Assembly (NCBI GenBank): GCA_937910235.1
Contig: CALENB010000101.1
Span: forward strand, 2,098-66,097
Direction: 5' to 3'
Length of the DNA stretch: 64,000 nt
Source of the DNA: an uncultured Myxococcales bacterium
GTDB taxonomy: Bacteria; Myxococcota_A; UBA9042
Below, piece after piece: positions 42,176 through 59,446 of this stretch. Made by a program: the position numbers and the translations under genes. Position 1 is the stretch's first letter, and every line of letters begins with the position of its first letter. Below the pieces are notes generated by a model that did not search any database, was not told the origin of the DNA, and saw nothing but the letters and a program-made list of their open reading frames with translations.

Positions 42176-42192
42176 TTGACGCATTGCGTCAA
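42176..42192. promoter_or_regulatory. Perfect 17-bp palindrome TTGACGCATTGCGTCAA in the divergent promoter region
   Basis: Direct reading. It sits between the divergently transcribed thioesterase-like gene and the acyl-CoA ligase gene, next to two 13-bp direct repeats GGGTCGTTCGTCG (42135-42147 and 42150-42162). Confidence 0.5.
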
Positions 42193-42297
42193 CCACGCGA
42201 ACCAAGGCTTCGGCAATGGTGGGGCTTTTGCAGATTTTTCGCTCGCGTAACGTTCGTCGTCGCTGTACGCTGCGCGCCACCTAACCAGGAGGGACCC

Positions 42298-45145: not shown

Positions 45146-46231
45146 ATGACCGCACCCAGCCGATCCACGCACGCCCAGTCCAAATACACGCCGTCCACGC
45201 ACCACCATCGGCCTCTCCTGTGGGCGCTGCTCAGCCTAACGGTCGCCTGCAGCAGCGGCGCAACCGACGCGAACAGCGGCGCTCTTGCCAGGCGAAGCGG
45301 CGACACGGCGCAGGTCTGGGAGGTTGGTGACGGGAGCGGCGACACCACGGCTGGCCTAGTGGATACGGGGCTGACGGACGCGGCTCTGGCCGACTCAGCG
45401 CCCTCCAAGGCGGACGCCGACCCAGATGCGGCCGGGCGCGCGAGTGGCGGCGACGGTTCAGCGGCGACGGCGCTGTGCAGTCACGGCACCGTGATCGTGC
45501 AATGCAGCTACAAGACGGAGGTCCTCAGCATCGGTTTTCCGCTCGATTCGCAGCGCAGCGTGCATTGGCAGCTGCCCCTCGGCGAGGCCCCGACCGGCGG
45601 TTGGCCGTGGGTGCTGATCTTTCAGGGCTCGTTCTTCTCCGCCGACCAAGCCTGGACCGCGACCCCGCTGTCGGCGTTCGGAGCGTTGTATCTGGTCGAG
45701 ACGATCGAGGCGCTACTGGGGGCCGGATACGCCGTGCTGACGCCCGAGGCCGCCGCGAGCGGCACCACATTCTGGAACACCAACGTCATGCCGTGGCGCG
45801 CCGCTTGGTCCAGCTCACCCGACGCCGCCTTGATGAAGGTGCTGTTCGCAGCCGTACAGGCCGGCAAATTCGGGCCGTTGGACCCCAAGCGGCGATTTGC
45901 CGCAGGCGCCTCAAGTGGCGGGTACATGACGAGCCGCATGGCGATCGCCTACCCCGGCACGTTCCGCGCGCTGGCCATCATCGCGGCGGCCTACGCGACT
46001 TGCGCTGGTTCGCTCTGCCTAGTGCCGTCGTTACCGGCCGACCATCCGCCTACGCTGTTCATGCACGGTCAGCTCGACTTGGTGGTGCCACAATGGACCG
46101 CGGAGCTCTACAAGGGCGCTCTGGACAAGCAAGGCACGCCGACGTCCCTGATCAGTGATCCGCTTGGGGGGCACAGCTGGCCGGCGACCGGCGCCAAGGC
46201 GATCCTCGAATTCTTCGGCGAGCATCCGTAG
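45146..46231 (+). CDS. Secreted alpha/beta-hydrolase esterase, LpqC/PHB-depolymerase-like
   Basis: Lipobox (LSLTVACSSG) and a nucleophile elbow GASSGGYM in a secreted esterase layout. The ORF is open from 44765 but the signal peptide starts at 45146. Confidence 0.55.
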   Translation: MTAPSRSTHAQSKYTPSTHHHRPLLWALLSLTVACSSGATDANSGALARRSGDTAQVWEVGDGSGDTTAGLVDTGLTDAALADSAPSKADADPDAAGRASGGDGSAATALCSHGTVIVQCSYKTEVLSIGFPLDSQRSVHWQLPLGEAPTGGWPWVLIFQGSFFSADQAWTATPLSAFGALYLVETIEALLGAGYAVLTPEAAASGTTFWNTNVMPWRAAWSSSPDAALMKVLFAAVQAGKFGPLDPKRRFAAGASSGGYMTSRMAIAYPGTFRALAIIAAAYATCAGSLCLVPSLPADHPPTLFMHGQLDLVVPQWTAELYKGALDKQGTPTSLISDPLGGHSWPATGAKAILEFFGEHP

Positions 46232-46265
46232 CCAAGTCTGCAGACGCGCGAGCGCAGCCGCAATT

Positions 46266-46281
46266 TTGTGCAGCGCAACAA
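46266..46281. promoter_or_regulatory. Predicted PhaR operator copy A: TTGTGCAGCGCAACAA, directly upstream of a TTGACA -35 element
   Basis: Palindromic TTGTGC-N3-GCAACAA. The same motif recurs at 46376, 56621 and 57783. Confidence 0.5.
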
Positions 46282-46375
46282 TTCACAATTGACAGCAGTT
46301 GTTCGGAGAACTACCGTGTCGTCGGCGTTTGAGGACTTGTCTTCTCGCGTCGACAACCACGGTGTCGCGTCCATT

Positions 46376-46390
46376 TTGTGCAGCGCACCA
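46376..46390. promoter_or_regulatory. Predicted PhaR operator copy B: TTGTGCAGCGCACCA, between the putative promoter and the SDR start
   Basis: Half-site TTGTGC-N3-GCAC, 30-50 bp upstream of the SDR start codon. Confidence 0.45.
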
Positions 46391-46438
46391 TAGCCCTCTC
46401 AAGCTGGTTAGCGCCGCTTGGGCGGTCGGAGCAACGAC

Positions 46439-47185
46439 ATGGATTTGAAAGACCTGAAGGTCATCGTCACGGGCGCCGCTAATGGCATGGGCACACATTT
46501 TGCCAATCAGCTCGCGGCCGCAGGTGCCTCCGTCGCGGCGGGGGACATCGACGTTGCCGGACTCGAGCGGCTCGCGCCCGGGATCCACACCCGCCGCCTC
46601 GACGTGACCGACGATGCAGACCTAACGGCCTTTGTTGACTGGGCGGCGGCGCAGATGGGGGGCCTCAATGGCCTCATCAACAACGCGGGCATCATCCGCG
46701 ACGGGTTGTTGGTGCGGAGAGACCGCAAATCTGGCGAGATCACCAAACTGTCGCGGCAGTTTTGGGACGACGTGCTCGCGGTCAACCTCACCGGCGCGAC
46801 CATGATGGTGCGCGAGACGATCGCCAAGATGATCGAGATCGAGCAATTTCCCGGCGTGATCGTCACCCTGTCGTCGATCTCAAGGCACGGCAACGCGGGG
46901 CAGAGCAACTACGTCGCGGCCAAGGCGGCGCTCGCGGCCAACACGCTGACGTGGGCACGGGAGTTCTCGCGATATGGCATCCGCTTTGGCGCGATCGCGC
47001 CAGGGATGGTGGCGACGCCGATGACGGCCGGCATGAATGAGAAGGCGCTCGCGGCGCTGACGGCCCGCATCCCGGTTGGTCGCATCGGGTTGCCTGAGGA
47101 CATCTGGCAAGCGATCCGGTTCGTGCTGGAGTGCGACTATTTCAACGGTCGCACCATCGATGTAGACGGCGGCCTGTCGATGTAG
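46439..47185 (+). CDS. Short-chain dehydrogenase/reductase (FabG/PhaB-like 3-ketoacyl reductase)
   Basis: TGAANGMG Rossmann motif and a YxxxK catalytic segment (NYVAAKAA). Possible acetoacetyl-CoA reductase role given the PHA gene context. An alternative start lies at 46418. Confidence 0.7.
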   Translation: MDLKDLKVIVTGAANGMGTHFANQLAAAGASVAAGDIDVAGLERLAPGIHTRRLDVTDDADLTAFVDWAAAQMGGLNGLINNAGIIRDGLLVRRDRKSGEITKLSRQFWDDVLAVNLTGATMMVRETIAKMIEIEQFPGVIVTLSSISRHGNAGQSNYVAAKAALAANTLTWAREFSRYGIRFGAIAPGMVATPMTAGMNEKALAALTARIPVGRIGLPEDIWQAIRFVLECDYFNGRTIDVDGGLSM

Positions 47186-47201: not shown

Positions 47202-48233
47202 TCAGCGGGCGTCGCGCGCAGCCCACCAGCCCGACAGCGCCGGCCACAAGCCCTGAGAAGCTGGCCGCGACACGACCCCGCCGACGTGACTGCCGGGGAG
47301 CTTCCAGACCGCCTTGTCCGTCGACGCCACGACGCCTTCAATGCAGGCGCAATCCTGCCACGGCGCGATGGCGTCCTGCTCAAACACCACGGCGAGGAGG
47401 GGGCAGGCGATCCGACCGAGGTGCACTGGGTTGCCGGTGATGGCCAGCGTGCCCGCCATCAAGGCGTTCTGCCGATAGAGCTCGTCGAGGTACCGCTTGA
47501 AGAAGTGGCCGGGCAGCGAGACGTTGTCGCTCGACCAGGTCTCCAGGGCGAGATACCCGGCCAAGAACCGGTCATTCCAAGCCCTGTCGATCAGGTTGAC
47601 GGCCTTGGCTAGCTTGAGCGTGGGTCGCAGCATCTGAAAGCTCCCCTCGAGCAGTTGCCACGGCATCAGACCAAAAGCGGCGGTGATGGCTCCCACGTCA
47701 AAATCCGGCGAGCGCGTCCATGCGCCCAACAACCCGTCGCCGTGAAATTGCATCGGCGCGGCGAGGTTGCAGACCGAGGCGACATGGGTCGCGTCGAGCG
47801 CGGCCTGGATGACGGTGAAGATGCCACCCATGCAGTACCCCAGCAGGTGGGTTTGGCGCCGGGCGCTGCTGCGGGCGACGATGCGCACGCATCGGGGCAG
47901 ATAGACGCCGCAGAGCTCGTCAAAATCAACAAACCGATCCTCGGCCTGCGGGGTGCCCCAGTCGATGATCCAGACGTCATGGCCCGCCGCAACAAGGAAC
48001 TCGACGAAGCTCTTGCCTGGCATCAAATCCAGGATGTAGTGGCGGTTGATGAGCGAGGGCACCAGCAAAATCGGCGTGGCGAAGGCGAGTCCTTCGGGCC
48101 GCGGGCGGTAACGCAGCAGGCGCAGCTTGTTCTCGCGGTGGATCACGTCCGACGGGGTGCCGCCCACGTGGGGCTTGGGTCGCCGCTTCAAAGTGACTAG
48201 GTTTTTCAGCCGCGCAAAGCCCTTGTCGCCCAC
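47202..48233 (-). CDS. phaC: PHA synthase catalytic subunit, class III/IV-like paralog (PhaC2)
   Basis: Shares ILLVPSLINRHYILDL, AGHDVWIIDWG and the GYCMGG lipase-box (Cys nucleophile) motifs with the PhaC at 58367. Confidence 0.7.
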   Translation of the reverse strand: MGDKGFARLKNLVTLKRRPKPHVGGTPSDVIHRENKLRLLRYRPRPEGLAFATPILLVPSLINRHYILDLMPGKSFVEFLVAAGHDVWIIDWGTPQAEDRFVDFDELCGVYLPRCVRIVARSSARRQTHLLGYCMGGIFTVIQAALDATHVASVCNLAAPMQFHGDGLLGAWTRSPDFDVGAITAAFGLMPWQLLEGSFQMLRPTLKLAKAVNLIDRAWNDRFLAGYLALETWSSDNVSLPGHFFKRYLDELYRQNALMAGTLAITGNPVHLGRIACPLLAVVFEQDAIAPWQDCACIEGVVASTDKAVWKLPGSHVGGVVSRPASQGLWPALSGWWAARDAR

Positions 48234-48256
48234 AACCTGCCTCCGAGTAGCCAGCG

Positions 48257-49951
48257 TTACGCGTACATCGCCGCAAACGTCTCGGCAAACATCTGATGAA
48301 CCTGCCGGCGCCTCACCTTGAGCGTCGCCGTCAGCAGCCCAGACTCGATCGTCAGCGGGCTGTGGATCACCTCAAAGCGCTTAATGGTCTCGTGACGCGC
48401 CAGCCCGGCGTTCACGGCCGCGATGCGCCGCTCGACCTCTTCTCGCAGCAGCGCTCGGACCTGGGCTTCGGACAGGTCGACCGGCTTTGCGCCCCGAAAT
48501 GCGGCCTCTGCGAGCGGATCGAGCCAGACGCCAGCCGTCAGAAAACGCCGACCGTCGCCGAAGAGCACGAGGTGTCCGACCAGATCGTCGTCCGCAAAAC
48601 GCAGCTCCACATTCGCCGGCGGCACGTTCTTGCCGCTCGCGAGCACAAAGATGTCCTTCTTTCGGTCGATGATCTGAAGAAAACCGTCCTCGGTGAACCG
48701 CCCCACGTCGCCCGTGCACAGCCAGCCATCGTCGGTGAACGCTGCGGCCGTCGCCTCCGGGTCCTTGTGGTAACCCGCGAAGATGTTGGGTCCGCGCGCC
48801 AAGATCTCGCCATCGTCGGCGAGGCGGAGCGCCACCGACGGCAGCGGCCGCCCCACCGAATCGAAACGGAACGCGTCTGGCCGGTTGAGCGTCAGCGTCG
48901 GCGACGCCTCGGTGAGACCGTACCCTTCGATGATCAGCAGACCGTTGCGATGAAAGAACTGCTTCACCGCGACGCTCAGCCCTGCGCCACCCGAGAGCAG
49001 AAAGTGGAAGCGACCACCGGTCAGCTCGCCGAGCCGCTGCGCTTGGGCCGCCTCGTCGCCCGCCTTCATCGCAAACGACGCGAGCTTCTCGAAGACCGCC
49101 GGCACGCTCATGAAGACGGTGGGCCGCACTTCGGGCAGGTGCTTGAAGAGGTCAATCGGCTCACACAGCCAGGTCTCGAAGCCCAACGTGTTGCCCAGGC
49201 ACGCCTCGCCAAAGCCGAAGATATGGCTCATCGGCAGCCACAGCAGATCGACATCGGGGGCCTCGCCATCGGGATCAGCGAGCATCGTGGCGTTGCACTG
49301 CAACCAGTCTCGGCCGTTGCTCGCGACGTTGAGGTGGGTCAGGGGCACGCCCTTGGGTAGCCCCGAGGTGCCCGACGTGTAGAGCATCACGGCGCCGTCC
49401 TCGAGGGAGATGGCGTCGAGGAGCCGGCCGATAGCGCCTGTGTCCTCGCCGTGCAGCGCCGCGCCGATCTCAAGCGCTTCGGAGAGGTTGTGCGCCGCCA
49501 GGGCGGGGCCGGTGGCGGCGCCGTCGAAACGCACCACCTGTGGCGGCGTGGGCAGCGGCGCCAGCGCCTCGTGCAGCTTGTCGGCGAGCGGGTCCGTCGC
49601 CACAAACACAAAACTGGCGTCGCTATGACCCACCACGTGCCGCACCTGCTCAGCGGTGCAGCTCGCATACACCGGCACCATCACGCCACCCGCTGCCTGG
49701 ATAGCCAGCGCGGCCGTCATCCATTGCACGCTGTTTGGCGCCAAAATCGCCGCCCGATCACCCCGCTGCAGGCCCGCTGCGCGCAGCCAGAGGGCGAGAT
49801 GCTGAATGTCTGCGGCGAAGGCCCCCCAGGTCACGTCGCGCCAGCCATCGCCGTCGGGGACGTGAAAACGCACCCGTTCGCTGCGGGAGGGCAGCGCGTC
49901 AAAGACGATGCAAGGCGCCGGCTTGGGGGCGAGGTAGGGCGTAGGATCCAT
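48257..49951 (-). CDS. AMP-dependent acyl-CoA synthetase/ligase embedded in the PhaC2 operon
   Basis: LYTSGTSGLPKGV AMP-binding motif. Gaps of 3 nt and 23 nt to its flanking genes imply one transcript. Confidence 0.75.
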   Translation of the reverse strand: MDPTPYLAPKPAPCIVFDALPSRSERVRFHVPDGDGWRDVTWGAFAADIQHLALWLRAAGLQRGDRAAILAPNSVQWMTAALAIQAAGGVMVPVYASCTAEQVRHVVGHSDASFVFVATDPLADKLHEALAPLPTPPQVVRFDGAATGPALAAHNLSEALEIGAALHGEDTGAIGRLLDAISLEDGAVMLYTSGTSGLPKGVPLTHLNVASNGRDWLQCNATMLADPDGEAPDVDLLWLPMSHIFGFGEACLGNTLGFETWLCEPIDLFKHLPEVRPTVFMSVPAVFEKLASFAMKAGDEAAQAQRLGELTGGRFHFLLSGGAGLSVAVKQFFHRNGLLIIEGYGLTEASPTLTLNRPDAFRFDSVGRPLPSVALRLADDGEILARGPNIFAGYHKDPEATAAAFTDDGWLCTGDVGRFTEDGFLQIIDRKKDIFVLASGKNVPPANVELRFADDDLVGHLVLFGDGRRFLTAGVWLDPLAEAAFRGAKPVDLSEAQVRALLREEVERRIAAVNAGLARHETIKRFEVIHSPLTIESGLLTATLKVRRRQVHQMFAETFAAMYA

Positions 49952-49954
49952 CGC

Positions 49955-50422
49955 TCAAAGCTCCTTGCTGCGCTTCTTGGAGGCCGGTTTTGCGGCCGGT
50001 TTTGCCGTCGGTTGGGCGTCAGGCTGTGCGGTCGGCTGTGCGGTCGGCTGTGCCGCCGCTGTGACGGCTCGCACCGTCTGCAGGGCCTCGATCAGCACCG
50101 CGTCGCGCTCGGCTAAGGCGCTGACCAAGGTTCGGATCTCGTCTCGCTGCACCGCGAGCTGCTCCTCCAAGTCCATCATCCGGCTGCCGAGCTGATGCAC
50201 CTCGTGCAGCATCCGCTCCTGGTCCCGCTTCACGGCCACGCCCGCCTGCCCCCACAGGGTCGCCGATTGGTGGTCGGCCTTGGCCTTGGCCTTCGCAGCC
50301 GCGGTGAGCATGGCGCCAGCGGGGCCGAGCAACATGGGGCTCTTCATCACCTGTTCCATCCACGTCGCCGTAGCGTTCTCCCATGCGTCGAAGCCGCCTT
50401 TCCAGGTTTTCCAGGTGTCCAT
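49955..50422 (-). CDS. Small Trp-rich/coiled-coil protein, putative PHA synthase partner subunit (PhaE/PhaR-subunit-like) or phasin
   Basis: 155 aa. The N-terminal W-x2-W-x6-W segment and C-terminal coiled coil resemble the 147-aa protein upstream of phaC at 57924. It is the first gene of the PhaC2 operon. Confidence 0.4.
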   Translation of the reverse strand: MDTWKTWKGGFDAWENATATWMEQVMKSPMLLGPAGAMLTAAAKAKAKADHQSATLWGQAGVAVKRDQERMLHEVHQLGSRMMDLEEQLAVQRDEIRTLVSALAERDAVLIEALQTVRAVTAAAQPTAQPTAQPDAQPTAKPAAKPASKKRSKEL

Positions 50423-50522
50423 GTTCGCTCCTTGTGGCTAGTAGTCGTCGGTGAACGGGTGTCGTCGGTGCTGTCTTGTTGTCGGTGATGGCTTGTCGTC
50501 GCGGTGTAAAACCAAGTGCCTG

Positions 50523-50568
50523 GCGCCGCCCTCAGCCGCCAGCTCGCGCTCACAAGCTGAGGCGGCGC
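50523..50568 (-). terminator. GC-rich hairpin (13-bp stem, 19-nt loop) overlapping the 3' end of the lipoprotein gene
   Basis: GCGCCGCCCTCAGC ... GCTGAGGCGGCGC. It separates the 5-gene operon from the PhaE-like operon. Confidence 0.35.
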
Positions 50569-51473
50569 AGCTCCGAGGCGGTCTCAAAGTCAGCTTTCGT
50601 CTCATTTCTCAGGCTCGTGGCCCGCGCCACCTCCCCGAGGCACTCGAATAGAAACGACACCTGCTGCTCGGTGATCGTCGGCCCGATCGCGGGCGTGATG
50701 GTCAGCTTGGTCCGCACGCGGAGGGTCTGGGTCAATGTCAGGTCCGGTAGCTCGAGCCGGCCGGTGGCGTCGACCGAGACCTCGTACGTGTCCTCGCCGA
50801 TCCACGGCAGACCGTAGAGCTTGCCGTTCGACACCTTGCCCTTCGAGGTCCAGGAGCGCCCTTTCTCGAGCGGAAAGCGCAGCACAGCCACGGGCTGCTG
50901 GTACACGAGCAGCGACTGGCCATCAGCCGGCGACTCCTCGCGGGAGGCCGTGCCCAGCAACCACAAGCCCTGAACATCGCGGCGGTAGACGGCGTCGAAG
51001 CGGCCGCCCGCATCCAGCCCTACGGTGAAGGCGTCCGCGGCGAAGTGCGCTGCGTACCAGCGCCCAGAGACCGGCGTCGCGGTGAAGCTCGCGAGTCGAT
51101 CGGTGCTGCTGCGTTCAGACCAATCCCACACCTGCTGGCCTTTGTCGTTGACGAAGCCCTTGAGGTCGACGGGCACGTGCAGCTCCGCCGGGCTGACCCG
51201 AAACCTCGCCGGGATCCCCATGGCGGCGACGAGCTCGGAGGCGTCGATGTGCCCGTCGAGGTTCGGAATGCAGGCGGGCCCGTTCCCCACCGCGGGCACA
51301 TACGGCAACAGCGGCCCGGCTTGCCCATTCTCGGCGGCACAGGCACAGGCGATGAGGCACCCCAGGGCGACCGCGACGCGGGAGCGCGCCGCCACGCCGC
51401 GATCGAGCCGGATTTGCGGGCTGTTGGCGGGTCGCGACCGCTGCGGGTTTATCATCAGGGGCTCGTGGCGCAT
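50550..51473 (-). CDS. Lipoprotein, paralog of 53991-55043, conserved C-terminal DFETASELRRL tail
   Basis: Lipobox (ALGCLIACAC). Aligns along its length with the other lipoprotein. An alternative longer start at 51521 would overlap the upstream gene. Confidence 0.55.
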   Translation of the reverse strand: MRHEPLMINPQRSRPANSPQIRLDRGVAARSRVAVALGCLIACACAAENGQAGPLLPYVPAVGNGPACIPNLDGHIDASELVAAMGIPARFRVSPAELHVPVDLKGFVNDKGQQVWDWSERSSTDRLASFTATPVSGRWYAAHFAADAFTVGLDAGGRFDAVYRRDVQGLWLLGTASREESPADGQSLLVYQQPVAVLRFPLEKGRSWTSKGKVSNGKLYGLPWIGEDTYEVSVDATGRLELPDLTLTQTLRVRTKLTITPAIGPTITEQQVSFLFECLGEVARATSLRNETKADFETASELRRLSL

Positions 51474-51484
51474 CGATCGTTCCC

Positions 51485-53086
51485 TCAGAAAGTGTACTGC
51501 AGCGTCAGCCGCGCCAACCACGCAGACTTGGCTTGTAGCCCAGCGGCTGGATTATCCAGGCCCGACAGTGGCAGCAGCCACGCGCCCTGGAGTGCGGCGA
51601 TGAAGCCGTCACGGCTCTCGTAACGGATGGTGGGATCGATCTCGACACCCAAGGGTCGTGTGCCGCCCGGCGTCGATTGGGCCTCGACCGCCCAGGCCGC
51701 GACGGCAGCGAGGTCGAGCTGCAACGTGCCCGCGCCGAAGTCTGCGACGCGGTGATGCACGTGCGGCCGCAGGTAGATCGCGTCGGTCACGCGCCCGAGC
51801 AGCTCGCGGAACAGGATGCGATCGACGCGGTAGTCCGAGTGAAAGCGAAAGTTGTCGATCCGCGTGTCCGCCGGCGGGCTCGCCTGGGGACCGTCGAGCT
51901 CGCCCGGCTGCGGGTAGCCTGCGCCCACGGGCTGGGCCGCGCCGAACCCCGGGGCCGGGTCGCCGCTGGCGTAGCCTGCGTCCAGCCCGCCACCGAAACC
52001 CTGCTTCGGGTCGCCGAAGTCGGTCTGGAGCGCCGCGCCGATCTGCAGCGACTCGACGGGATCCCGATAGAGGGCGCCCGGCAGGAGCGTGCCCTGCTCA
52101 ACGGTGCCGGAGAGCACCGCGGCTTCGACCTCGACGCGAAACCGCGCGCCGCGCCATCGCAACCAGAGGTCACCGGCGAGCGCCGAGAAGTTGCGCGGCA
52201 CCACCGAGGCCGAGGTCAGCGCGCCCGACGCGGACTGGCTCGGGTCGACGTTCGGCAGCCAGCTCGCCGGTACATCCAGCTCCTGGGTGCGGCGCGACAG
52301 CCACAACCCAGCGTCGAGGGTGGTGCGGCCAGCCCGAGCTCGACGCGCGAACGTGGTCTCATCGGCGAAACGCAGCACGGCGAACGTGATGGTTCGCACG
52401 TCATCCCGAGGATCGAGGTCGATGGTGCGGCCGGGCGCGGTCCGCGCGACCTGCGGTCCCGTCGCCGAGAAGTCGTAGGCGAGCGCCCAGATGAGCCCGG
52501 CGATGGGGGTCACAAACGCGATGCGGTCGGCGGCGTCTCCCGTGTCGCTCTCCATGCCATCGCCGCCGTGGGTCAAGATCCCCAGCCCCCAATGGCTGCC
52601 CATGCGCCCCGCAGCCAGCACGCCGAACGGGGTGACGGTCTCGGCCCACACGCGACGAAGCCGGATCTGCGCGCTCTCAGGCGCCTGCCCCGTTGCGCCG
52701 AGCGGCGCGCCGTCAGGGCTGGCGCCGAGGCCCGTGCCGTCCATGACGTCCAGCCGCATGTGAATGGCCAGACCGCCGCGCGGCGCGAAGATCGACAAGT
52801 CCGTGCGCAGCCGCATGTCGGCGTGGGTCAGCATCGCGGCTGTGGGGTCGGACAGCGGCACGGGGAAGAACATGCGCCCAGAGGGGGTCGGTCCGCGGTC
52901 CAGATCCAGGTTGTTGAGCGCTTCGCCCCGCAGCCGCAGCGCGCCATGCACCTCGACAGCGGTCGTCGCGCGATCGTGCAGGCCTTGTCCTAGCTGCGTG
53001 AAGGTCTCTGCGGCGGTCGCAGGCGCCACGATGCCGCTCGCCAGCAAGGTTGTAGACGCCCAGAGCGCCAGCGTTGTCGCCCTCAT
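51485..53086 (-). CDS. Outer-membrane beta-barrel protein (FadL/porin-like), hypothetical
   Basis: Signal peptide (TLLASGIVAPATAAE), alternating beta-strand pattern and a C-terminal aromatic residue (LTLQYTF). Start overlaps the hydrolase stop by 4 nt. Confidence 0.5.
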   Translation of the reverse strand: MRATTLALWASTTLLASGIVAPATAAETFTQLGQGLHDRATTAVEVHGALRLRGEALNNLDLDRGPTPSGRMFFPVPLSDPTAAMLTHADMRLRTDLSIFAPRGGLAIHMRLDVMDGTGLGASPDGAPLGATGQAPESAQIRLRRVWAETVTPFGVLAAGRMGSHWGLGILTHGGDGMESDTGDAADRIAFVTPIAGLIWALAYDFSATGPQVARTAPGRTIDLDPRDDVRTITFAVLRFADETTFARRARAGRTTLDAGLWLSRRTQELDVPASWLPNVDPSQSASGALTSASVVPRNFSALAGDLWLRWRGARFRVEVEAAVLSGTVEQGTLLPGALYRDPVESLQIGAALQTDFGDPKQGFGGGLDAGYASGDPAPGFGAAQPVGAGYPQPGELDGPQASPPADTRIDNFRFHSDYRVDRILFRELLGRVTDAIYLRPHVHHRVADFGAGTLQLDLAAVAAWAVEAQSTPGGTRPLGVEIDPTIRYESRDGFIAALQGAWLLPLSGLDNPAAGLQAKSAWLARLTLQYTF

Positions 53087-53994
53087 CTCGCGCCTTCCTG
53101 CAGAAAGGACCGCAAGTCCGCCGTGGAGGCCGCCGCCGCTTCGATCATGGGGAAGTGTCCGCAGCGCGGGTAGAACTTCAGCCGCGCTTGGGGCAGGTCG
53201 GACGCGAGACGCCGGGCAAATCGCGGCATCGAGATGCGGTCATCCCGCCCCCAGAGCAGCAGCACGGGCTTCTGGATGCGGCGATAGGCGGGCTGCATCT
53301 CGGCGAAATGCTGACCCCGCACCGCCGCCAGCGCCGCCGCCCGGGTGCCTGGTCGCTTGAGGGCGAGCTGCAGCTCATCGACAAACGCCTCGGTGAGAAT
53401 GGATGGATCAAAGAAGCCCGTCGCCAGCCGCTCCTCCGCGCGTTCGGTGTAAAAGAGCCGAAAAATCGCCTCGCCGAGGCCACCCACGGCGGCCCAACGG
53501 AAGAACGCTGGGATCTGGTCGTCGTAGACCCAAGCGTCATACAGCGCCACGCGCTCGACCCGATCCGGGGCAGCGATCGCCAACGCCAGCGCCACCGAGG
53601 ACCCCCAGGAGTGGGCGACGACGGCGAAGCGCTTCACGCCCCTGGCATCGAGCAGCTTGAGCACCAAGCGCGCCTGCGCCTGGGGGCTGTAATCACCCGC
53701 TGGCCGGTCGCTCCAACCAAACCCCTTGAGATCCAATGACAGCACGCGGTGGGTGCCGCGCAAGGCCTCGTCGACCCCAACCCAGGTCTCGAGCGCCGAG
53801 GCGAAGCCGTGAAGCAGCACCACCGCCGGTCCCTGCCCGCGGTCGGTGTACCGCACACGCACGCCGTCGATGCGCTGCCAAGCCGCGTTCTTCGGCTCGC
53901 CGCGCATGGCGCCCTGATGAAAGGACAAGCAACCGCTCGCCGACAGCGTCAGCAGGCCCAGCAGCGCGACTATGGGGTACGCGTGACGCTTCAC
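53083..53994 (-). CDS. Secreted alpha/beta-fold hydrolase lipoprotein
   Basis: A GTG start gives a lipoprotein signal (VKRHAYPIVALLGLLTLSASGC). HGF oxyanion motif (VVLLHGFAS) and nucleophile elbow AHSWGS. The GTGA overlap with the upstream gene stop suggests translational coupling. Confidence 0.65.
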   Translation of the reverse strand: MKRHAYPIVALLGLLTLSASGCLSFHQGAMRGEPKNAAWQRIDGVRVRYTDRGQGPAVVLLHGFASALETWVGVDEALRGTHRVLSLDLKGFGWSDRPAGDYSPQAQARLVLKLLDARGVKRFAVVAHSWGSSVALALAIAAPDRVERVALYDAWVYDDQIPAFFRWAAVGGLGEAIFRLFYTERAEERLATGFFDPSILTEAFVDELQLALKRPGTRAAALAAVRGQHFAEMQPAYRRIQKPVLLLWGRDDRISMPRFARRLASDLPQARLKFYPRCGHFPMIEAAAASTADLRSFLQEGAR

Positions 53995-55043
53995 GGCGTG
54001 AGCCTGCGCAGCTCGGAGGCGGTCTCGAACTCGTCGCTCGTCTCGCCGTCTTTGGACCGCGCGGCGGCGACCGTGCCGAAACACTCGGTGGCGAAGAGGA
54101 ACGAACGCACGGTGGTGGTCAGCAGGCCAATCTGGCGGGTCAGCAGGGTCCGCACACGCAGCGCCGGGAAGTCGCCGAAGGGGGTCTTCACGGTGCCCGA
54201 GGCGTCCACCTCGCTGCCGTAGCTCTCGCTGTAGATCACGATCACGCCCTTGGCGAGGCCACTCACCGACGCCTTAACCTGCCATTTGGCCCCGATCTTC
54301 AGGGGAAAAGCCAGCAGCGGCACGGGTGGGTCGTACACCAAGCGCGTCGCGAACAAGCTGTTGTCCTTCGACACCACGCCGCGCAGGAGCAGGGCCTTAC
54401 CGTTGGCCTCGAACACCCCGAGCAGATCGCCTGAGGGAGCCATCGGCGCGGCATAACTGGCGCCGGGATAGTAGCTAGAAAACCAGAGGTCTTTGACAGG
54501 CAGGGTCTTGACCAGCACGTCTTGGTCGCCAGTCATCTTGCCCGAGAAGTCCCACACCCGCTGGCCCCCGGCGACGATCTCGCCCTTCAAGTCGACGGCG
54601 GTGTTCTCGGCCACCCGGAAGGTCGCGGCCAGGTTGGGGCCATAGGGCGCCTCGGAGGCTGTGATGGTGCCGTCGTGGTTCGGTTTGCACGCGCCAGCCT
54701 GGCCGCCAGTGTCACTCACACCGACATCGGCGGTTGGGAGGCTCGTGTCAGCAGCCGAGCCGGAGCCGTCGGACCCGGAGGCGACGGCGCCATCCTGCCC
54801 CGACGCGGCCCCGTCGCCGGTCTCCCAGCGGGTCGGGAAGCTGCCGTCCGCGGCGTCCGCGACCGACGCCGGCGCGCACGTGCCGTTGGATTGGCAGATG
54901 CTCGACGCACAGTCAGCGTTGACGTTACAGGACGCGATCGCCGTCTCGGCGCCGCAGGCCACGCCGACGACCACGCTCAGCGCGCACGCCGCGGTCACGC
55001 GAAGCCGCCGGAGGGCGGTCGCGCGCGGTGCGCTCATCTTCAT
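53991..55043 (-). CDS. Lipoprotein, paralog of 50550-51473, C-terminal DEFETASELRRL tail
   Basis: Signal MKMSAPRATALRRLRVTAACALSVVVGVACG with a Cys-rich N-terminal segment, then a domain that aligns with the other paralog. Confidence 0.55.
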   Translation of the reverse strand: MKMSAPRATALRRLRVTAACALSVVVGVACGAETAIASCNVNADCASSICQSNGTCAPASVADAADGSFPTRWETGDGAASGQDGAVASGSDGSGSAADTSLPTADVGVSDTGGQAGACKPNHDGTITASEAPYGPNLAATFRVAENTAVDLKGEIVAGGQRVWDFSGKMTGDQDVLVKTLPVKDLWFSSYYPGASYAAPMAPSGDLLGVFEANGKALLLRGVVSKDNSLFATRLVYDPPVPLLAFPLKIGAKWQVKASVSGLAKGVIVIYSESYGSEVDASGTVKTPFGDFPALRVRTLLTRQIGLLTTTVRSFLFATECFGTVAAARSKDGETSDEFETASELRRLTP

Positions 55044-55138
55044 CTTGTTCCAGGCCAACCTCATGTCGCCTCCCTCTCTGCCTGAGTGCGGCTCGCGAGC
55101 CGTGACGCGCCGCTCTTGCCTGGGCGCGGTGCCGATCG

Positions 55139-56437
55139 CTAGCTTGCGGAGGCAGCGTCGCTCGTCACCGGGCCGGTCACGGCGGCGCTGGCTGGATCCA
55201 TCGCTGCGGCCCCGACACGCGCGCGGCTGCCGGTCTCCATCAGCCCCATCGCCGGCACGACGATGAGCAGGTGCGCAAACGCCAACAGCCCGAGCGCCGC
55301 GCTGAAGCCGCCCGCGCCTGCGACCGCGCCCGTGGCCACTGGCAGCAGGAAGCCGCCGAGCTGGCCGACAAGCAGCAGCAGACCGAGCGCCGCGCCGGCT
55401 CGACTGACGCCAACGCCGGGGAGCTCGAGCGGCAAGGTGAGGACCAAGGGCGCAAAACAACCGCCGCCGATCGCGGCTACCGCCAACCACAGCCCCGGAG
55501 ATCCGGGCACGATCGCCATGATACCGAGGGCCGCCGCCGCGAGCATCGCGCCGCCAATGATGAAGGGACGCCGCAGGCCGACCTTGTCCGAGAGCCACGC
55601 GCCGCCCAGGTTCGCGACCCCCGCCACGCCAAGCCACGACGCCACCGCGACGCCTACTTCGGACGCGCTCATGCCCGCGTCGGTGAGCAAGCGCGGCAGC
55701 GAGCCGAGCAGCGCGAGGTAGCCACCAAAGAGCAGCAGCTGAATGCCCGCGACCCGCATCAGTTGGGCGTTCTTGGCCAACTTCAACACATCGGCGAGCC
55801 CTGCATGTCGCGAGAGCGCCGCCCGGTCGCGCACGAGCCACAGCCACAGCAGCCCGGTCAGCACCATCGCCACACCGGCGGCCACCATCGCCATCCGCCA
55901 GCCTCCCAGCATCGGCGCGAGCCAGGTCCGCGCCACCAACACCGTGATGGCGGTGCCAAAGGTGTAGCAGATGAGCGCGATGCCGTTGGCGCGACCCAAG
56001 TTCTGCAGCGGGACGTGGGAAGCCAAGATCTTCGGGATGGCGGGGGCCACAAATCCGACGTGCAAACCAAATCCCAACATGGCGATCGCCATCGTCCACG
56101 GCCCGGTAGCGAGGGCGCGGGAGGCGCAGGCCAACGCCCCTACCATGATCGCGAGCCCGGCGACCCAGCGCGCACCCCAGCGGTCCACGGCCGCGCCGCC
56201 CATGGGCGCCGCCACGGCGATCCCAAACGGCGCCGCGCCCCAAACCACCCCACCCATCGCATGCGAGATCGACAGATCGGCGGCGATGTCGGGCATCAGT
56301 GGCGGCAACAGCGACCACCCCAAACCACCGCCAACACCCTGCATGGCGCCAGCGAGCGCAGTGACCAGCACCGGCCGCGCAGGAGCGCCCTGGAGCACGT
56401 CCTGTATCCCGCTCTCGATCTTCGCTTGCACCGTCAT
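55139..56437 (-). CDS. MFS transporter
   Basis: 12-TM layout with Gly-rich helices. Start chosen at MTVQAKIES; the ORF is open to 56536. It is the first gene of the 5-gene operon and is divergent from phaR. Confidence 0.65.
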   Translation of the reverse strand: MTVQAKIESGIQDVLQGAPARPVLVTALAGAMQGVGGGLGWSLLPPLMPDIAADLSISHAMGGVVWGAAPFGIAVAAPMGGAAVDRWGARWVAGLAIMVGALACASRALATGPWTMAIAMLGFGLHVGFVAPAIPKILASHVPLQNLGRANGIALICYTFGTAITVLVARTWLAPMLGGWRMAMVAAGVAMVLTGLLWLWLVRDRAALSRHAGLADVLKLAKNAQLMRVAGIQLLLFGGYLALLGSLPRLLTDAGMSASEVGVAVASWLGVAGVANLGGAWLSDKVGLRRPFIIGGAMLAAAALGIMAIVPGSPGLWLAVAAIGGGCFAPLVLTLPLELPGVGVSRAGAALGLLLLVGQLGGFLLPVATGAVAGAGGFSAALGLLAFAHLLIVVPAMGLMETGSRARVGAAAMDPASAAVTGPVTSDAASAS

Positions 56438-56620
56438 CGTCGCTCTCCTCGCTGGCCTCGCCGCGCCCTGAACTGCCTCGCCGCGCCCCGAGCGGCCGCG
56501 AGAGGCTACGGTCACCCGGCTGTGTGGGCGCGCCACCGCGTCGCGGATGCGCCACAGCGGCCGGGCGAGTGGGAAGCGAGCAAAAGCTAGGGGCTCGCGG
56601 GGCTCGCGTCAAGCGCTATT

Positions 56621-56635
56621 TTGTGCGCTGCACAA
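56621..56635. promoter_or_regulatory. Predicted PhaR operator copy C: perfect palindrome TTGTGCGCTGCACAA upstream of phaR, divergent from the MFS operon
   Basis: Perfect inverted repeat. A second palindrome GTGCTGCATTCAGCAC lies at 56646-56661. Confidence 0.5.
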
Positions 56636-56939
56636 TACCGCTTTGCGTGCTGCATTCAGCACCAAGTCATCAGGCTGGTCGCGAGCTAAAGGTTCGTGTA
56701 GGCTGGCTTTCGCGGCGTAAATGGTGCGTAGTTTGCGGTGTTCTCCAGACAGAATTCACGCCCAGTCAGACACGACCCGAGACGGAAAACGGCATTGGAT
56801 GCTGCAGACGCGGTGCTGCGACGCTGCGGCGCAACAGTCCGGCGCTCCACCGGCAGAGACCCCCGCTTCAAGATCCACAACGACGACGACACGACGAGAC
56901 ACACCGCACCAACCCGCTGCAGCCAACCAGGGAACCGAC

Positions 56940-57764
56940 ATGATCACCATCAAGAAGTACAGCAATCGTCGTCTCTACGACACCGACCGCAGCAGCTACA
57001 TCACCTTGGAGGACCTCGCCGAGCGCATCTGCAAAGGCGATGACGTGCGGGTGGTCGACGCGTCCACCGGCCGCGACCTGACTCAGGCGACGCTGGTGCA
57101 GATCGTGCTTGAGAGCCGGGGCGCTGCGCGCTTTCTCCCCGCGCCGCTGCTGGTCGCCATGATCCGCATGGGGGATGACGCCCTGGCCGAGTTCCTCGGT
57201 CGCTACATGAGCTGGGCGCTGCAGGTGTACTCGGGTGTGCGGAGTCAGGCGCGCACCATGATAGGCGCTTTTGGGCCGGGTTCATTCATGAACGGCGGCC
57301 CCTTCACGGGCTTCATGGGGGGCACACCATGGCAGGGAGGCGCCGGCGGCCACGGTGGGGCGGGATGGGGTCAAGGTCCGCAGGGCTGGAGCCCACACGG
57401 CGCGGGTGCACAGGGCGGGCAGGGTTGGGCCGCGCAAGGTCAGCCGATGCCTTGGGGGGCGCCCGGTTGGCCCCTTCCGCCACAGCCCGAGCCGCCGCGG
57501 TCTGAGGCCTCGTGGTCGCCGCCGTCGGCGTCCGATGTCCCGCCGCCGGAACCCGTGTCGGCGGCCCAGGCAGCCTCATCCACGCCAGGGTCATCCACGG
57601 CAGGGTCATCCACGGCAGGGTCATCCACGCCAGGGTCATCCACGCCGGCGTCATCCCCTGAAGCCACCGCTCCCGACCCGGCCCGCTCCGAGCTTGCTGC
57701 GCTGCGGCGAGAGTTGGATGAGCTTCGGGATTCATTGAAGGCAGGTGCTCGTTCAAAGAAGTAA
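56940..57764 (+). CDS. phaR: PHA synthesis repressor PhaR (PHB_acc_N DNA-binding domain) with Ser/Thr/Gly-rich C-terminal repeat tail
   Basis: N-terminal MITIKKYSNRRLYDTDRSSYITLEDL signature. The ORF is open from 56721 but the conserved domain starts at 56940. Confidence 0.85.
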   Translation: MITIKKYSNRRLYDTDRSSYITLEDLAERICKGDDVRVVDASTGRDLTQATLVQIVLESRGAARFLPAPLLVAMIRMGDDALAEFLGRYMSWALQVYSGVRSQARTMIGAFGPGSFMNGGPFTGFMGGTPWQGGAGGHGGAGWGQGPQGWSPHGAGAQGGQGWAAQGQPMPWGAPGWPLPPQPEPPRSEASWSPPSASDVPPPEPVSAAQAASSTPGSSTAGSSTAGSSTPGSSTPASSPEATAPDPARSELAALRRELDELRDSLKAGARSKK

Positions 57765-57782
57765 AATTCGTGCCGGCCAAAT

Positions 57783-57798
57783 TTGTGCGGTGCAACAA
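57783..57798. promoter_or_regulatory. Predicted PhaR operator copy D: TTGTGCGGTGCAACAA, immediately upstream of a TTGACG-N17-TAGGTT promoter
   Basis: Same motif and the same operator-then-(-35) arrangement as copy A. It is upstream of the phaE-like/phaC operon. Confidence 0.5.
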
Positions 57799-57923
57799 AA
57801 AACCGCTTGACGCGTGCTGCTCCCGCTCTTAGGTTGCGTGAGCCGACGCCGCAATGGAGCGGCGACCGCAGCCAGCCCAGCATACCAACGACAAGCGCTA
57901 GGGCGGAGAGAGGGACACGACAC

Positions 57924-58367
57924 ATGGCCAACAAGACCGAGACCGGCGCGACGGACACCGCAAACAACACCACGTCGACGAGCGACGCTCCGCAACCGCA
58001 GCAGACCGCCCCCACCTGGCCGGATTGGCGCGCCTTCACTTGGCCGCAGCAGGGCGAGGCGCCGCAGATGTTTCAGATGCCGCAGATGTTCCAGATGCCG
58101 CAGATGCCCGAGATGCCGGGCCACGAGCTGTGGAGCAAGGCGGTTGCTGACAACGTCGCACGCATGGAAGGCCTCGTCGGCGCGCTGCAAGCGCAGTCGC
58201 AGCGCCAGTCGGAGCAGGCTGAGAAGGCCATCGACGAGCTGGCGCGGCTCACCAAGGCCAGTCTCGGTTACGGCCTGGAGCTGCAGGCCCGTGCGCACGG
58301 CATGTTCATGGACAACGCGCGCAAGGCGTCGGCGGCGGCCGCCACCAGCAAGGGCGTGGTGGCCTGA
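57924..58367 (+). CDS. Small PHA synthase partner subunit (PhaE/PhaR-subunit-like) with MFQMPQ repeat and coiled coil
   Basis: 147 aa with a W-rich N-terminus (TWPDWRAFTWP). It is translationally coupled to phaC (TGATG overlap). Confidence 0.45.
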   Translation: MANKTETGATDTANNTTSTSDAPQPQQTAPTWPDWRAFTWPQQGEAPQMFQMPQMFQMPQMPEMPGHELWSKAVADNVARMEGLVGALQAQSQRQSEQAEKAIDELARLTKASLGYGLELQARAHGMFMDNARKASAAAATSKGVVA

Positions 58368-59446
58368 TGTTCGGGCTGAATCTGCGTGAGGGGGCTGCGC
58401 CCTACGACGTCACCATGCGCGACGGCAACAGTCGCCTGCTCCGTTTTCGGACCACGGCCACTGGCGCGGGGCGACCGATTCTGCTTGTGCCGTCGATGAT
58501 CAATCGTTGGTACGTGCTCGATCTCGGCCCCGGCGCCAGCCTCGTCGCCGCGCTGGTGGAGGCGGGCCATGACGTCTGGTGTCTCGACTGGGGTGTGCCT
58601 GGAGACGAAGATCGACATCTGGACTGGGAGGCGGTGACCGCGCGGCTGCAGCGGACGGTGCGCTTTGTGCGGCGGCGTACCGGCGGCGACCCGGTGGGTC
58701 TACTGGGCTACTGCATGGGTGGGACGCTAGCCGCGATTCACACAGCGCTGCATCCGGAGGACGTGGCAGGGCTCGTCAATCTCGCCGGCCCGATCGATTT
58801 TGCCAAGGCCGGCGTGCTGGCGCACTTCGTCGATCCGCAGTGGTTTGATGCCGAAGCCATCGTGCAGGCCGGCAACCTAAGCCCAAAGCAAATGCAGGAC
58901 GGGTTCACCGCGATCTCACCGAGCAAGCAGATCGCCAAGTGGATCATGCTGGCCGACCGCGTGATCAGCGCGACGGATGCCGACGCACGCACAAAGGGCA
59001 TCGGGAGCTTCGCCCGCCTTAACGGGTGGGCGTCGGACAACATCCCGTTCCCGGCCGCCGCGTACACGACGTGGATTCGCGACCTCTACCAGCGCAACGA
59101 CCTAGCGCAGCGGCGCCACCACGTGGGCGGACGGCGGGTGGAGCTTGGCCAGATTGGCTGCCCAGTGCTCGTCATCAGCGCCGCCAACGACGCCATCTGT
59201 CCACCCGAGTCGGCCACGGCGTTGCTTGATCAGGTCGCGTCCACCGACAAGCGTCACGTCCAAGTGCCCGGTGGCCATGTCGGGGCTGTGGTTGGTCGAC
59301 GGGCGGCCAAGCTGCTGTACCCCGCCATCTCGGCGTTCTTCGAAGAGGCGGCACCGTCACGTGCCCCTAGCGCTTATTCGGGGTCACACGACGCACCCGA
59401 CCCTGTCGGCGTGCCATGGTCTGCCGCACACCGCCCGAGCTGTTGA
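58367..59446 (+). CDS. phaC: PHA synthase catalytic subunit, class III/IV type
   Basis: Collinear with class III PhaC (ILLVPSMINRWYVLDL, GHDVWCLDWG, GYCMGG lipase box, ASDNIPFP...IRDLYQRN, active-site His region GGHVG). Confidence 0.8.
   Translation: MFGLNLREGAAPYDVTMRDGNSRLLRFRTTATGAGRPILLVPSMINRWYVLDLGPGASLVAALVEAGHDVWCLDWGVPGDEDRHLDWEAVTARLQRTVRFVRRRTGGDPVGLLGYCMGGTLAAIHTALHPEDVAGLVNLAGPIDFAKAGVLAHFVDPQWFDAEAIVQAGNLSPKQMQDGFTAISPSKQIAKWIMLADRVISATDADARTKGIGSFARLNGWASDNIPFPAAAYTTWIRDLYQRNDLAQRRHHVGGRRVELGQIGCPVLVISAANDAICPPESATALLDQVASTDKRHVQVPGGHVGAVVGRRAAKLLYPAISAFFEEAAPSRAPSAYSGSHDAPDPVGVPWSAAHRPSC

Follow-up and report, generated by a model that had tools for sequence, protein, structure and literature searches.

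Two classes of polyhydroxyalkanoate (PHA) synthase are built from a small catalytic subunit and a partner. In class III, known from Allochromatium vinosum, Synechocystis and a haloarchaeal subtype with a 20-kDa PhaE, a PhaC of about 40 kDa that lacks an N-terminal domain, and that has a G-x-C-x-G-G box and a Cys-Asp-His triad, is joined by PhaE, a small helical protein encoded upstream in the operon. In class IV, known from Priestia megaterium and Bacillus cereus, the partner is called PhaR (here the "PhaR subunit", to keep it apart from the PhaR regulator), and the P. megaterium operon runs phaR-phbB-phaC, that is, partner, monomer-supply enzyme and synthase. The published partners have 20-40 kDa (PhaE) and 22 kDa (PhaR subunit) (PMC6403647; PMC7137286), and one or the other is required for the activity of every characterised 40-kDa PhaC (PMC6403647). 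Here, we describe two PhaC genes, phaC1 and phaC2, together with two small genes, small1 and small2, in a stretch of 64,000 nucleotides ("the window") from an uncultured Myxococcales bacterium (assembly GCA_937910235.1, contig CALENB010000101.1, positions 2,098 to 66,097 of the forward strand).

Two further systems bear comparison. Haloferax mediterranei has several class III-like phaC paralogs and a single PhaE-type gene (PMC7137286). In the PhaR/AniA-phasin circuit of Cupriavidus necator, Paracoccus and Sinorhizobium meliloti, the gene for a regulator with a PHB_acc_N domain lies beside the gene for a small amphipathic protein, and a palindrome is found at the -35 element. The PhaR motif of S. 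meliloti, YGCRNYGCR, is experimentally verified and flanks the -35 elements of phasin promoters (PMC12542648); the PhaR boxes of Paracoccus and Rhodobacter have been called "TGC-rich" (PMC10888616).

The phaC1 and phaC2 loci are not independent. They are parts of one conserved supercluster found across Myxococcota. The reading that we prefer, and to which we give somewhat better than an even chance, is that this supercluster would store PHA under the control of PhaR, with small2 serving both synthases and small1 being phasin-like. The four genes at issue are these.

58367-59446, plus strand: phaC1, a class III/IV-like PHA synthase of 359 amino acids and 38.5 kDa, with the triad C116, D275, H304

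47202-48233, minus strand: phaC2, a class III/IV-like PHA synthase of 343 amino acids and 37.9 kDa, with the triad C134, D287, H316

49955-50422, minus strand: small2, a protein of 155 amino acids with a core (residues 1-95), a coiled-coil extension and an AQPT-repeat tail

57924-58367, plus strand: small1, a protein of 147 amino acids with a disordered N-terminus that contains PQMFQM repeats and, in an AlphaFold2 model, one long amphipathic helix (67-145)

An initial annotation of the window had proposed these four reading frames. All are present, with a third-position G+C content of 0.83-0.85, which is of the coding type. It had also described both small proteins as Trp-rich coiled-coil proteins of about 150 amino acids. 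This is a fair account of the two molecules, which have 2.7% Trp in 147 residues (small1) and 3.2% in 155 (small2) and in both of which long helices are predicted. The AlphaFold2 model of small2 has helices at 3-27 and 29-124 (pLDDT 83.7); the helix of small1 is moderately amphipathic (hydrophobic moment z = 2.3).

The catalytic subunits are indeed paralogs, being 40% identical over 321 residues (E 5e-68 in a BLASTP-type comparison). Both contain LLGYCMGG, and with it the class III hallmark G-Y-C-M-G-G to which the initial annotation had pointed. The best family for both is the class III PhaC model TIGR01836, at 245.8 bits for PhaC2 and 222.3 bits for PhaC1, although both fall short of its curated cut-off of 365.3 bits. 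What defines a PHA synthase in general (the G-x-C-x-G-G box, a Cys nucleophile, Asp and His) is found in each. So is what defines class III/IV by size: at 38.5 and 37.9 kDa both are near 40 kDa, and both lack the N-terminal domain of classes I and II, Pfam PhaC_N being matched in no more than its final 50-60 positions. Between PhaC2 and annotated class III/IV PhaCs from Haloferax, Priestia and rhizobia, the identity is 32-37%. A divergence of its catalytic residues, which the initial annotation had named as fatal to its own proposal, is not seen. In 48 PhaC1 and 64 PhaC2 orthologues, conservation of the Cys-Asp-His triad is 95% or more; both triads align with that of 9knj, a solved class I synthase, and PhaC1 matches solved PhaCs. 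In Minicystis rosea, the lipase box of PhaC1 reads GYCMGA.

The class III motif R-M-E-x-W-I-x-D-x-x-D (PMC7137286) is another matter. In full it is absent from both proteins, PhaC1 having R-L-N-G-W-A-S-D-N-I-P and PhaC2 A-L-E-T-W-S-S-D-N-V-S; each keeps only the W and the first D, plus the R or the E. Within each group of orthologues the proteins are 50-60% identical to their own copy in the window and about 40% identical to the other copy, which makes the duplication an old one. PhaC1 and PhaC2 thus look like functional enzymes that were anciently duplicated. By all these comparisons, the system appears to work like class III and class IV synthases, yet it stays below the curated cut-offs of those families and keeps the class III motif only in part.

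The small2 family has at least 263 database proteins, nearly all from Myxococcota and mostly of about 93 amino acids, which are called "hypothetical protein" wherever the source gives a name; an exhaustive profile search returned 308 clusters at the 50% level, almost all of small proteins. These relatives are mostly 50-65% identical to the copy in the window. The family is more conserved than the PhaCs themselves, and its core motifs, W-x2-WK-x-FDAWE ... GLPTKRDQERxLH ... DLEE, are strongly so.

Homology of this core appears to extend to two regions: in class III PhaE, the C-terminal core, and in the class IV PhaR subunit, the N-terminal half. The PhaE model PF09712 (cut-off 25.7 bits) is matched by 24 of 33 family members, at best with 7.9e-8 and always at profile positions of about 230-311 of 311; some relatives reach 27-28 bits, above the gathering threshold. 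A second PhaE model, TIGR01834 (cut-off 154.95 bits), is matched by 25 of the 33, all far under the cut-off. The class IV PhaR subunit model TIGR02132 (about 189 positions, cut-off 148.4 bits) is matched weakly by seven (best 2.5e-6), again under the cut-off. In hhalign, the best single-sequence match of the family is the PhaR subunit of P. megaterium (82%, E 1.1e-5), whose residues 4-102 run colinear with residues 1-96 of small2; the C-terminal halves of PhaE from S. meliloti and H. mediterranei give 54% and 21%. These profile matches and the colinear alignment make small2 a probable bare core common to PhaE and the PhaR subunit, that is, a reduced PhaE/PhaR-type subunit. Since databases already attach PF09712 to some of its members, the family is recognisable rather than unknown.

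At about 10 kDa, the family has roughly half the mass of the smallest partner subunit that has been described. Unlike PhaE, with its 20-40 kDa, it lacks the whole N-terminal region; unlike the 22-kDa PhaR subunit, it lacks a further C-terminal half. The copy in the window reaches 155 amino acids only through its coiled-coil extension and the AQPT-repeat tail, which is encoded by a 12-nucleotide unit repeated five times (49985-50055). In small1, an in-frame tandem repeat of 9/18 nucleotides (58061-58118) encodes the PQMFQM repeats. It is because of such in-frame repeats in disordered tails that the two proteins here have about 150 amino acids rather than about 90. The size given in the initial annotation is thus true of this organism and not of the families, both of which normally have about 90 residues.

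Several candidates and searches around small2 came to nothing. A protein of 401 amino acids (P0270) that looked like a fusion of small2 with PhaC was rejected as a frameshifted mistranslation, and three long matches (P0237, P0257 and P0229) merely have low-complexity extensions. A search of a representative library with the small2 profile gave only small proteins among the best 150 and no bridge to a full-length PhaE. PDB sequence searches with the small1 and small2 family profiles gave only chance coiled-coil matches, and no solved structure of PhaE or the PhaR subunit turned up in the PDB searches made.

The other small protein is of a different kind. Used as a single sequence, small1 finds one database homologue. 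With the family rebuilt as a hidden Markov model (HMM) from open reading frames upstream of phaC1 in related loci, a profile search finds 74, one of them from the cultured Minicystis rosea; where named, all are "hypothetical protein" save one, which JGI mislabels as a chemotaxis protein. The family normally has 89-91 amino acids and shows little conservation (column identity 24% on average), and no Pfam domain was found in it. To small2 it appears unrelated: BLASTP finds nothing between the two proteins and hhalign of the two families gives 0.9%, so that the initial view of the small proteins as paralogous counterparts falls. Against the PhaR subunit, PhaE and haloarchaeal PhaP, hhalign gives 0.3-3.4%, and thus no relation; the upper value is for the PhaP of H. 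mediterranei. The idea of a reduced subunit type, for which a comparison with PhaE and PhaR subunit HMMs had been proposed, is therefore supported for small2 and not for small1.

Nor is small1 a phasin by any family model. Besides haloarchaeal PhaP, the models PF09361 and PF05597 were tried; three of 38 family members match Phasin_2 weakly and one matches Phasin weakly, none at a cut-off. The Phasin_2 matches, like those to DUF3106, were dismissed as helix composition, a relative of small2 matching Phasin_2 too. The possibility that the small proteins are phasins had been named at the outset as the case against a pair of synthase partners. It may apply in part to small1, which may be phasin-like, and not to small2, which is probably of the PhaE/PhaR type. 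Many small1 relatives begin with a conserved M-(S/A)-(E/D)-K-x-T-S-Q-x-Q-Q before the helix, from which the copy in the window has diverged; this may be a short docking motif.

To see how the four genes belong together, the neighbourhood must be introduced. The regulator and its candidate operators are the following.

56940-57764, plus strand: phaR, a PhaR-type PHA-responsive regulator, which scores 88.1 bits with PF07879 (PHB_acc_N), a model whose cut-off is 25

46265-46284 (TTTGTGCAGCGCAACAATTC) and 46375-46394, plus strand: PhaR-box-like palindromes upstream of the gene for a short-chain dehydrogenase/reductase (SDR), with TTGACA just downstream of the first

56620-56639, no strand: perfect palindrome TTGTGC-GCT-GCACAA between the divergent MFS and phaR genes, found with a position weight matrix (PWM)

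57782-57801 (TTTGTGCGGTGCAACAAAAA), plus strand: PhaR-box-like palindrome before small1, followed by a promoter-like TTGACG (57807-57812), a 17-nucleotide spacer and TAGGTT (57830-57835)

The remaining genes of the cluster are these.

46418-47185, plus strand: SDR, a FabG/PhaB-like 3-ketoacyl reductase (adh_short_C2, 7.8e-47), convergent with phaC2

48257-49951, minus strand: ACS, an AMP-forming acyl-CoA synthetase of the long-chain fatty-acid CoA ligase type (AMP-binding, 1.3e-69, and AMP-binding_C_3)

50550-51473, minus strand: Y323, a putative lipoprotein of unknown family, conserved in relatives, with its ATG at 51473 and a LIAC lipobox seen by eye

51485-53086, minus strand: a TIGR04551-family protein (342.9 bits, above the cut-off of 300)

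53083-53994, minus strand: ABH, an alpha/beta hydrolase (Abhydrolase_1, 1.4e-30) with a lipoprotein-type signal peptide seen by eye, in a conserved position in relatives

53991-55064, minus strand: X357, a putative lipoprotein of unknown family, conserved in relatives, with a lipoprotein-type signal peptide seen by eye

55139-56536, minus strand: an MFS transporter (MFS_1, 4.6e-39), first gene of the long minus-strand string

The alignment of small2 is matched by 301 genomic loci. Of these, 80 were retrieved, in metagenome-assembled genomes (MAGs) of Polyangiaceae, Kofleriaceae, Haliangiales, Nannocystineae and Bradymonadales. By tblastn, nearly all long loci have one order: phaR, small1, phaC1 and SDR are read in one direction, and (MFS), X357, ABH, the TIGR04551 gene, Y323, small2, ACS and phaC2 in the other. 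Hardly any relative lacks ACS between small2 and phaC2. The MFS gene is present in a subset of them, and SDR, which follows phaC1 in most, lies in the window beside phaC2. Two MAGs titled "uncultured Enterobacteriaceae bacterium" (L006 and L017) carry the high-GC Myxococcota cluster in full synteny; their taxonomic labels are probably wrong.

On the plus strand, small1 and phaC1 overlap in the window by one base (TGATG). On the minus strand, the genes are tightly packed, with GTGA and 4-nucleotide overlaps (the GTG start of ABH overlaps the stop codon of X357) and then gaps of 11, 3 and 23 nucleotides. The only sizeable gap of the long operon, 127 nucleotides, precedes small2, and no operator lies in it. 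Given this packing, small2 is probably not the first gene of an operon. The initial annotation had put a small gene first and a phaC last in each operon; for small2 this does not hold, since it is gene six of a conserved eight-gene string that starts at MFS/X357, with ACS between it and phaC2. Inside the 127-nucleotide gap, just upstream of small2, a 17-nucleotide direct repeat (3.4 copies, 50444-50501) contains CACCGACGAC; it may be an internal regulatory element of the long operon.

The arrangement parallels that of class IV, with small2-ACS-phaC2 taking the place of phaR-phbB-phaC. It differs from class III in that ACS separates the partner gene from phaC2. It differs from class IV in its hosts, which are Myxococcota, in the weak reach of TIGR02132 (the seven of 33 members noted above), and in its regulator, which is of the PhaR/AniA type, with PHB_acc_N, and not PhaQ. 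Against TIGR01848, that regulator scores 88.1 bits, below the cut-off of 109.45. Its C-terminal half is long, low in complexity and rich in Gly, Trp and Gln, with an in-frame 15-nucleotide repeat (5.4 copies, 57576-57656) in its gene that falls, like those of small1 and small2, in a disordered tail. The usual PHB_acc middle domain is missing here; it is weakly present in the PhaR of M. rosea.

The palindrome TTGTGC-N3-GCAACAA stands, in most of 53 loci, directly upstream of a TTGACA-type -35 element of the small1 promoter. In the 64 kb of the window, the palindrome, there in the form TTGTGC-N3-GCA(A/C)CAA, is confined to promoters of the cluster: a PWM built from the boxes upstream of small1 in related loci picks out four sites and no others, two before SDR, one between MFS and phaR, and one before small1. 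In shuffled sequences it finds none. Across 81 loci (1.24 Mb), sites gather before small1 and, among those not used for training, before X357, MFS and phaR, the latter in about 60 places. The core of the palindrome fits YGCRNYGCR, the S. meliloti motif, and also the TGC-rich boxes of Paracoccus and Rhodobacter. A generic scan for sigma-70 promoters and terminators was uninformative.

The palindrome is, from these matches, a candidate PhaR operator for the phylum Myxococcota, and we infer that one PhaR regulon spans both synthases. Such a regulon argues against the "two regulatory regimes" of the initial annotation. Its two separate synthase pairs likewise give way to one supercluster, in which a PhaR-type operator of one kind precedes either side. 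As in the PhaR/AniA-phasin circuit, a PHB_acc_N gene lies beside the gene for a small amphipathic protein, with a YGCRNYGCR-type palindrome at the -35 element. Unlike in that circuit, the box stands before a gene from an orphan family rather than one for a Pfam phasin, and this gene shares its transcript with a synthase gene; here, moreover, boxes also precede the long operon of envelope proteins, ACS and the second synthase.

Which small protein serves which synthase is judged from what is kept when something else is lost. In M. rosea (locus L089; CP016211.1, 6162807-6183076) and in the L002 cluster, small2-ACS-SDR is found without phaC2, and the only clustered synthase is the orthologue of PhaC1. 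In L064, phaC2 is a 65-residue remnant (11966-12171), and small2 is intact beside small1-phaC1. The simplest reading of small2 kept beside phaC1 in these three cases is that it is a general partner, usable by either PhaC. It would be the activating partner of PhaC2 and, very probably, of PhaC1 as well. The single PhaE that serves several PhaCs in H. mediterranei (PMC7137286) is the precedent; the difference is that both PhaCs here lie in one conserved, co-regulated cluster under purifying selection. Conversely, several loci have phaC2-small2 with no phaC1 or small1 nearby. In L038 and L051, small1 is followed directly by SDR, with no phaC1, and in L025 no phaC1 was found downstream of small1. 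This persistence, together with its fast evolution, makes small1 look like an accessory protein: we infer a lineage-specific, amphipathic, phasin-like granule protein, not an analogue of PhaE.

Some observations tell against this reading. Of 52 loci, 49 have small1, as found by the family HMM, directly ahead of phaC1; in about 40% of them the two genes overlap or nearly touch, a pattern that would fit a dedicated subunit too. Its similarity to phasins is negligible, those three weak Phasin_2 matches among 38 being no more than a small2 relative achieves. The scores of small2 against PhaE and PhaR subunit models are mostly far below family cut-offs, the hhalign probabilities are moderate, and the copy in the window, taken alone, does not match PF09712 even at E <= 10. 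Genomes without a clustered phaC2 could have one elsewhere. The box before small1 is centred near -52, which is compatible with activation or with repression, and PhaR is the presumed rather than the observed protein at the boxes.

The strongest alternative goes back to the initial annotation and takes the two pairs as independent heteromeric synthases, PhaC2 with small2 and PhaC1 with small1, the latter being a novel partner not homologous to PhaE. We hold this possible, though a good deal less probable than the reading above. It draws on the adjacency of small1 and phaC1 in 49 of 52 loci, with the overlaps just mentioned and the TGATG of the window; on the missing N-terminal domain of PhaC1, a feature of all synthases known to need a partner (PMC6403647); and on three hhalign runs that align the start of the small1 helix, D-x-W-x-K, with the FDAWE-like motif of PhaE and the PhaR subunit, without significance. 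It must, however, accommodate a small1 that has no PhaE/PhaR homology at the profile level, that persists without phaC1 (L038, L051 and L025), that evolves fast, and whose promoter position matches that of phasin genes (PMC12542648), as well as a small2 that persists where phaC1 alone remains. A similarly tentative standing is given to a wider claim: that this is a distinct, unclassified Myxococcota type of PHA synthase, made of a PhaC of about 38 kDa and a bare PhaE/PhaR core of about 93 amino acids (10 kDa), with small1 as the dedicated partner of PhaC1, so that one regulon would hold two partner solutions linked to the uptake and CoA-activation of scavenged fatty acids.

That neither small protein is needed by the synthases, both being granule or regulatory proteins and the PhaCs acting as homo-oligomers without a partner, is improbable. 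Both proteins are, of course, long amphipathic helices, and weak Phasin_2 matches occur in both families. Against this stand the domain that small2 has in common with PhaE and the PhaR subunit, needed by every characterised 40-kDa PhaC (PMC6403647), its conservation above that of the PhaCs, and its almost invariable linkage to phaC2.

Most improbable of all is that ACS and PhaC2 belong to lipid metabolism, like the mycobacterial proteins that fuse an acyl-CoA synthetase to an alpha/beta hydrolase (PRK07868): PhaC2 and PhaC1 do match the N-terminal part of NF005898, that family's model (4.6e-22 and 5e-19), and ACS is of the long-chain type and lies beside envelope genes, but the nucleophile is Cys in a G-x-C-x-G-G box and not Ser, the class III PhaC model outscores the others by a wide margin, and ACS-phaC2 has a PhaE homologue, a phaR gene and PhaR boxes in its company.

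Under the preferred reading, in which small2 serves both synthases, a mechanism can be proposed. PhaR would bind the TTGTGC-N3-GCAACAA boxes before small1-phaC1, before SDR and before the long string from MFS to phaC2, and so tie expression to the state of the PHA store. Each PhaC, in complex with small2, would polymerise (R)-3-hydroxyacyl-CoA through its Cys-Asp-His triad. The small1 protein, made from a promoter with a PhaR box, would act on the granules as phasins do. The PhaB-like SDR, with PhaR boxes of its own, would supply reduced monomers to PhaC1. ACS would activate free, possibly imported, (hydroxy)fatty acids for PhaC2, and import might be the work of the co-transcribed envelope proteins. 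Different routes of monomer supply, by the PhaB-like SDR on one side and by ACS with the envelope genes next to phaC2 on the other, are plausible.

The evidence on these supply genes is as follows. Among NCBIfam models, SDR scores best with PRK08217 (265.6 bits) and reaches about 134-137 bits with acetoacetyl-CoA reductase models, all under cut-off; the best match of ACS, FadD11, has 249 bits and is under its cut-off too. Five conserved genes (MFS, X357, ABH, TIGR04551 and Y323; 50550-56536, minus strand) lie between the synthase modules, upstream of small2, and look like an uptake or processing system that would be co-transcribed with a PHA synthase. Y323 and X357 are paralogs (37% identical). 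Y323 has no Pfam match, X357 has no Pfam or PDB match, and the TIGR04551 protein has no relative in the PDB. The last has, by eye, a signal peptide and a C-terminus that ends ...YTF. A C-terminal Phe is typical of outer-membrane barrels, and this protein is probably an outer-membrane beta-barrel. The true start of the MFS protein may be a Met 33 codons downstream.

The window is chromosomal DNA of about 67% G+C, with dnaG, rpoD, secDF, recJ and mfd among the housekeeping genes outside the PHA region. No gene for a thiolase, PhaJ or PhaZ was found elsewhere in it. Two further genes border on the cluster. They encode a second acyl-CoA synthetase (42184-43962), 28% identical to ACS and also with AMP-binding_C_3, and an apparently secreted alpha/beta hydrolase with a Peptidase_S9-like C-terminus (45182-46231).

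No paper describing this cluster was found in literature searches. The physiology of one relative, however, has been described. Bradymonas sediminis accumulates PHA granules, more of them during predation, and scavenged fatty acids have been proposed as the source of its PHA (PMC7460792), with which a fatty-acid-fed mechanism agrees. Its order carries the cluster in three MAGs (L035, L040 and L060), the link to the published strain being at the level of order only.

What does such a cluster mean? We know of no defined minimal functional region of PhaE or the PhaR subunit. A natural, highly conserved version of 93 residues would mark the part of these proteins that matters, and would be convenient for structural and mechanistic work. 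Because the enzymes lie outside the curated class III and IV models, genome surveys that go by those names undercount them. For Myxococcota, the cluster brings with it a candidate PhaR operator. It also puts PHA storage in the predatory and saprophytic members of the phylum, in which it has hardly been studied, on a concrete genetic footing, and the linkage of a synthase to an acyl-CoA synthetase and to unknown envelope proteins suggests that what is stored may be scavenged fatty acids.

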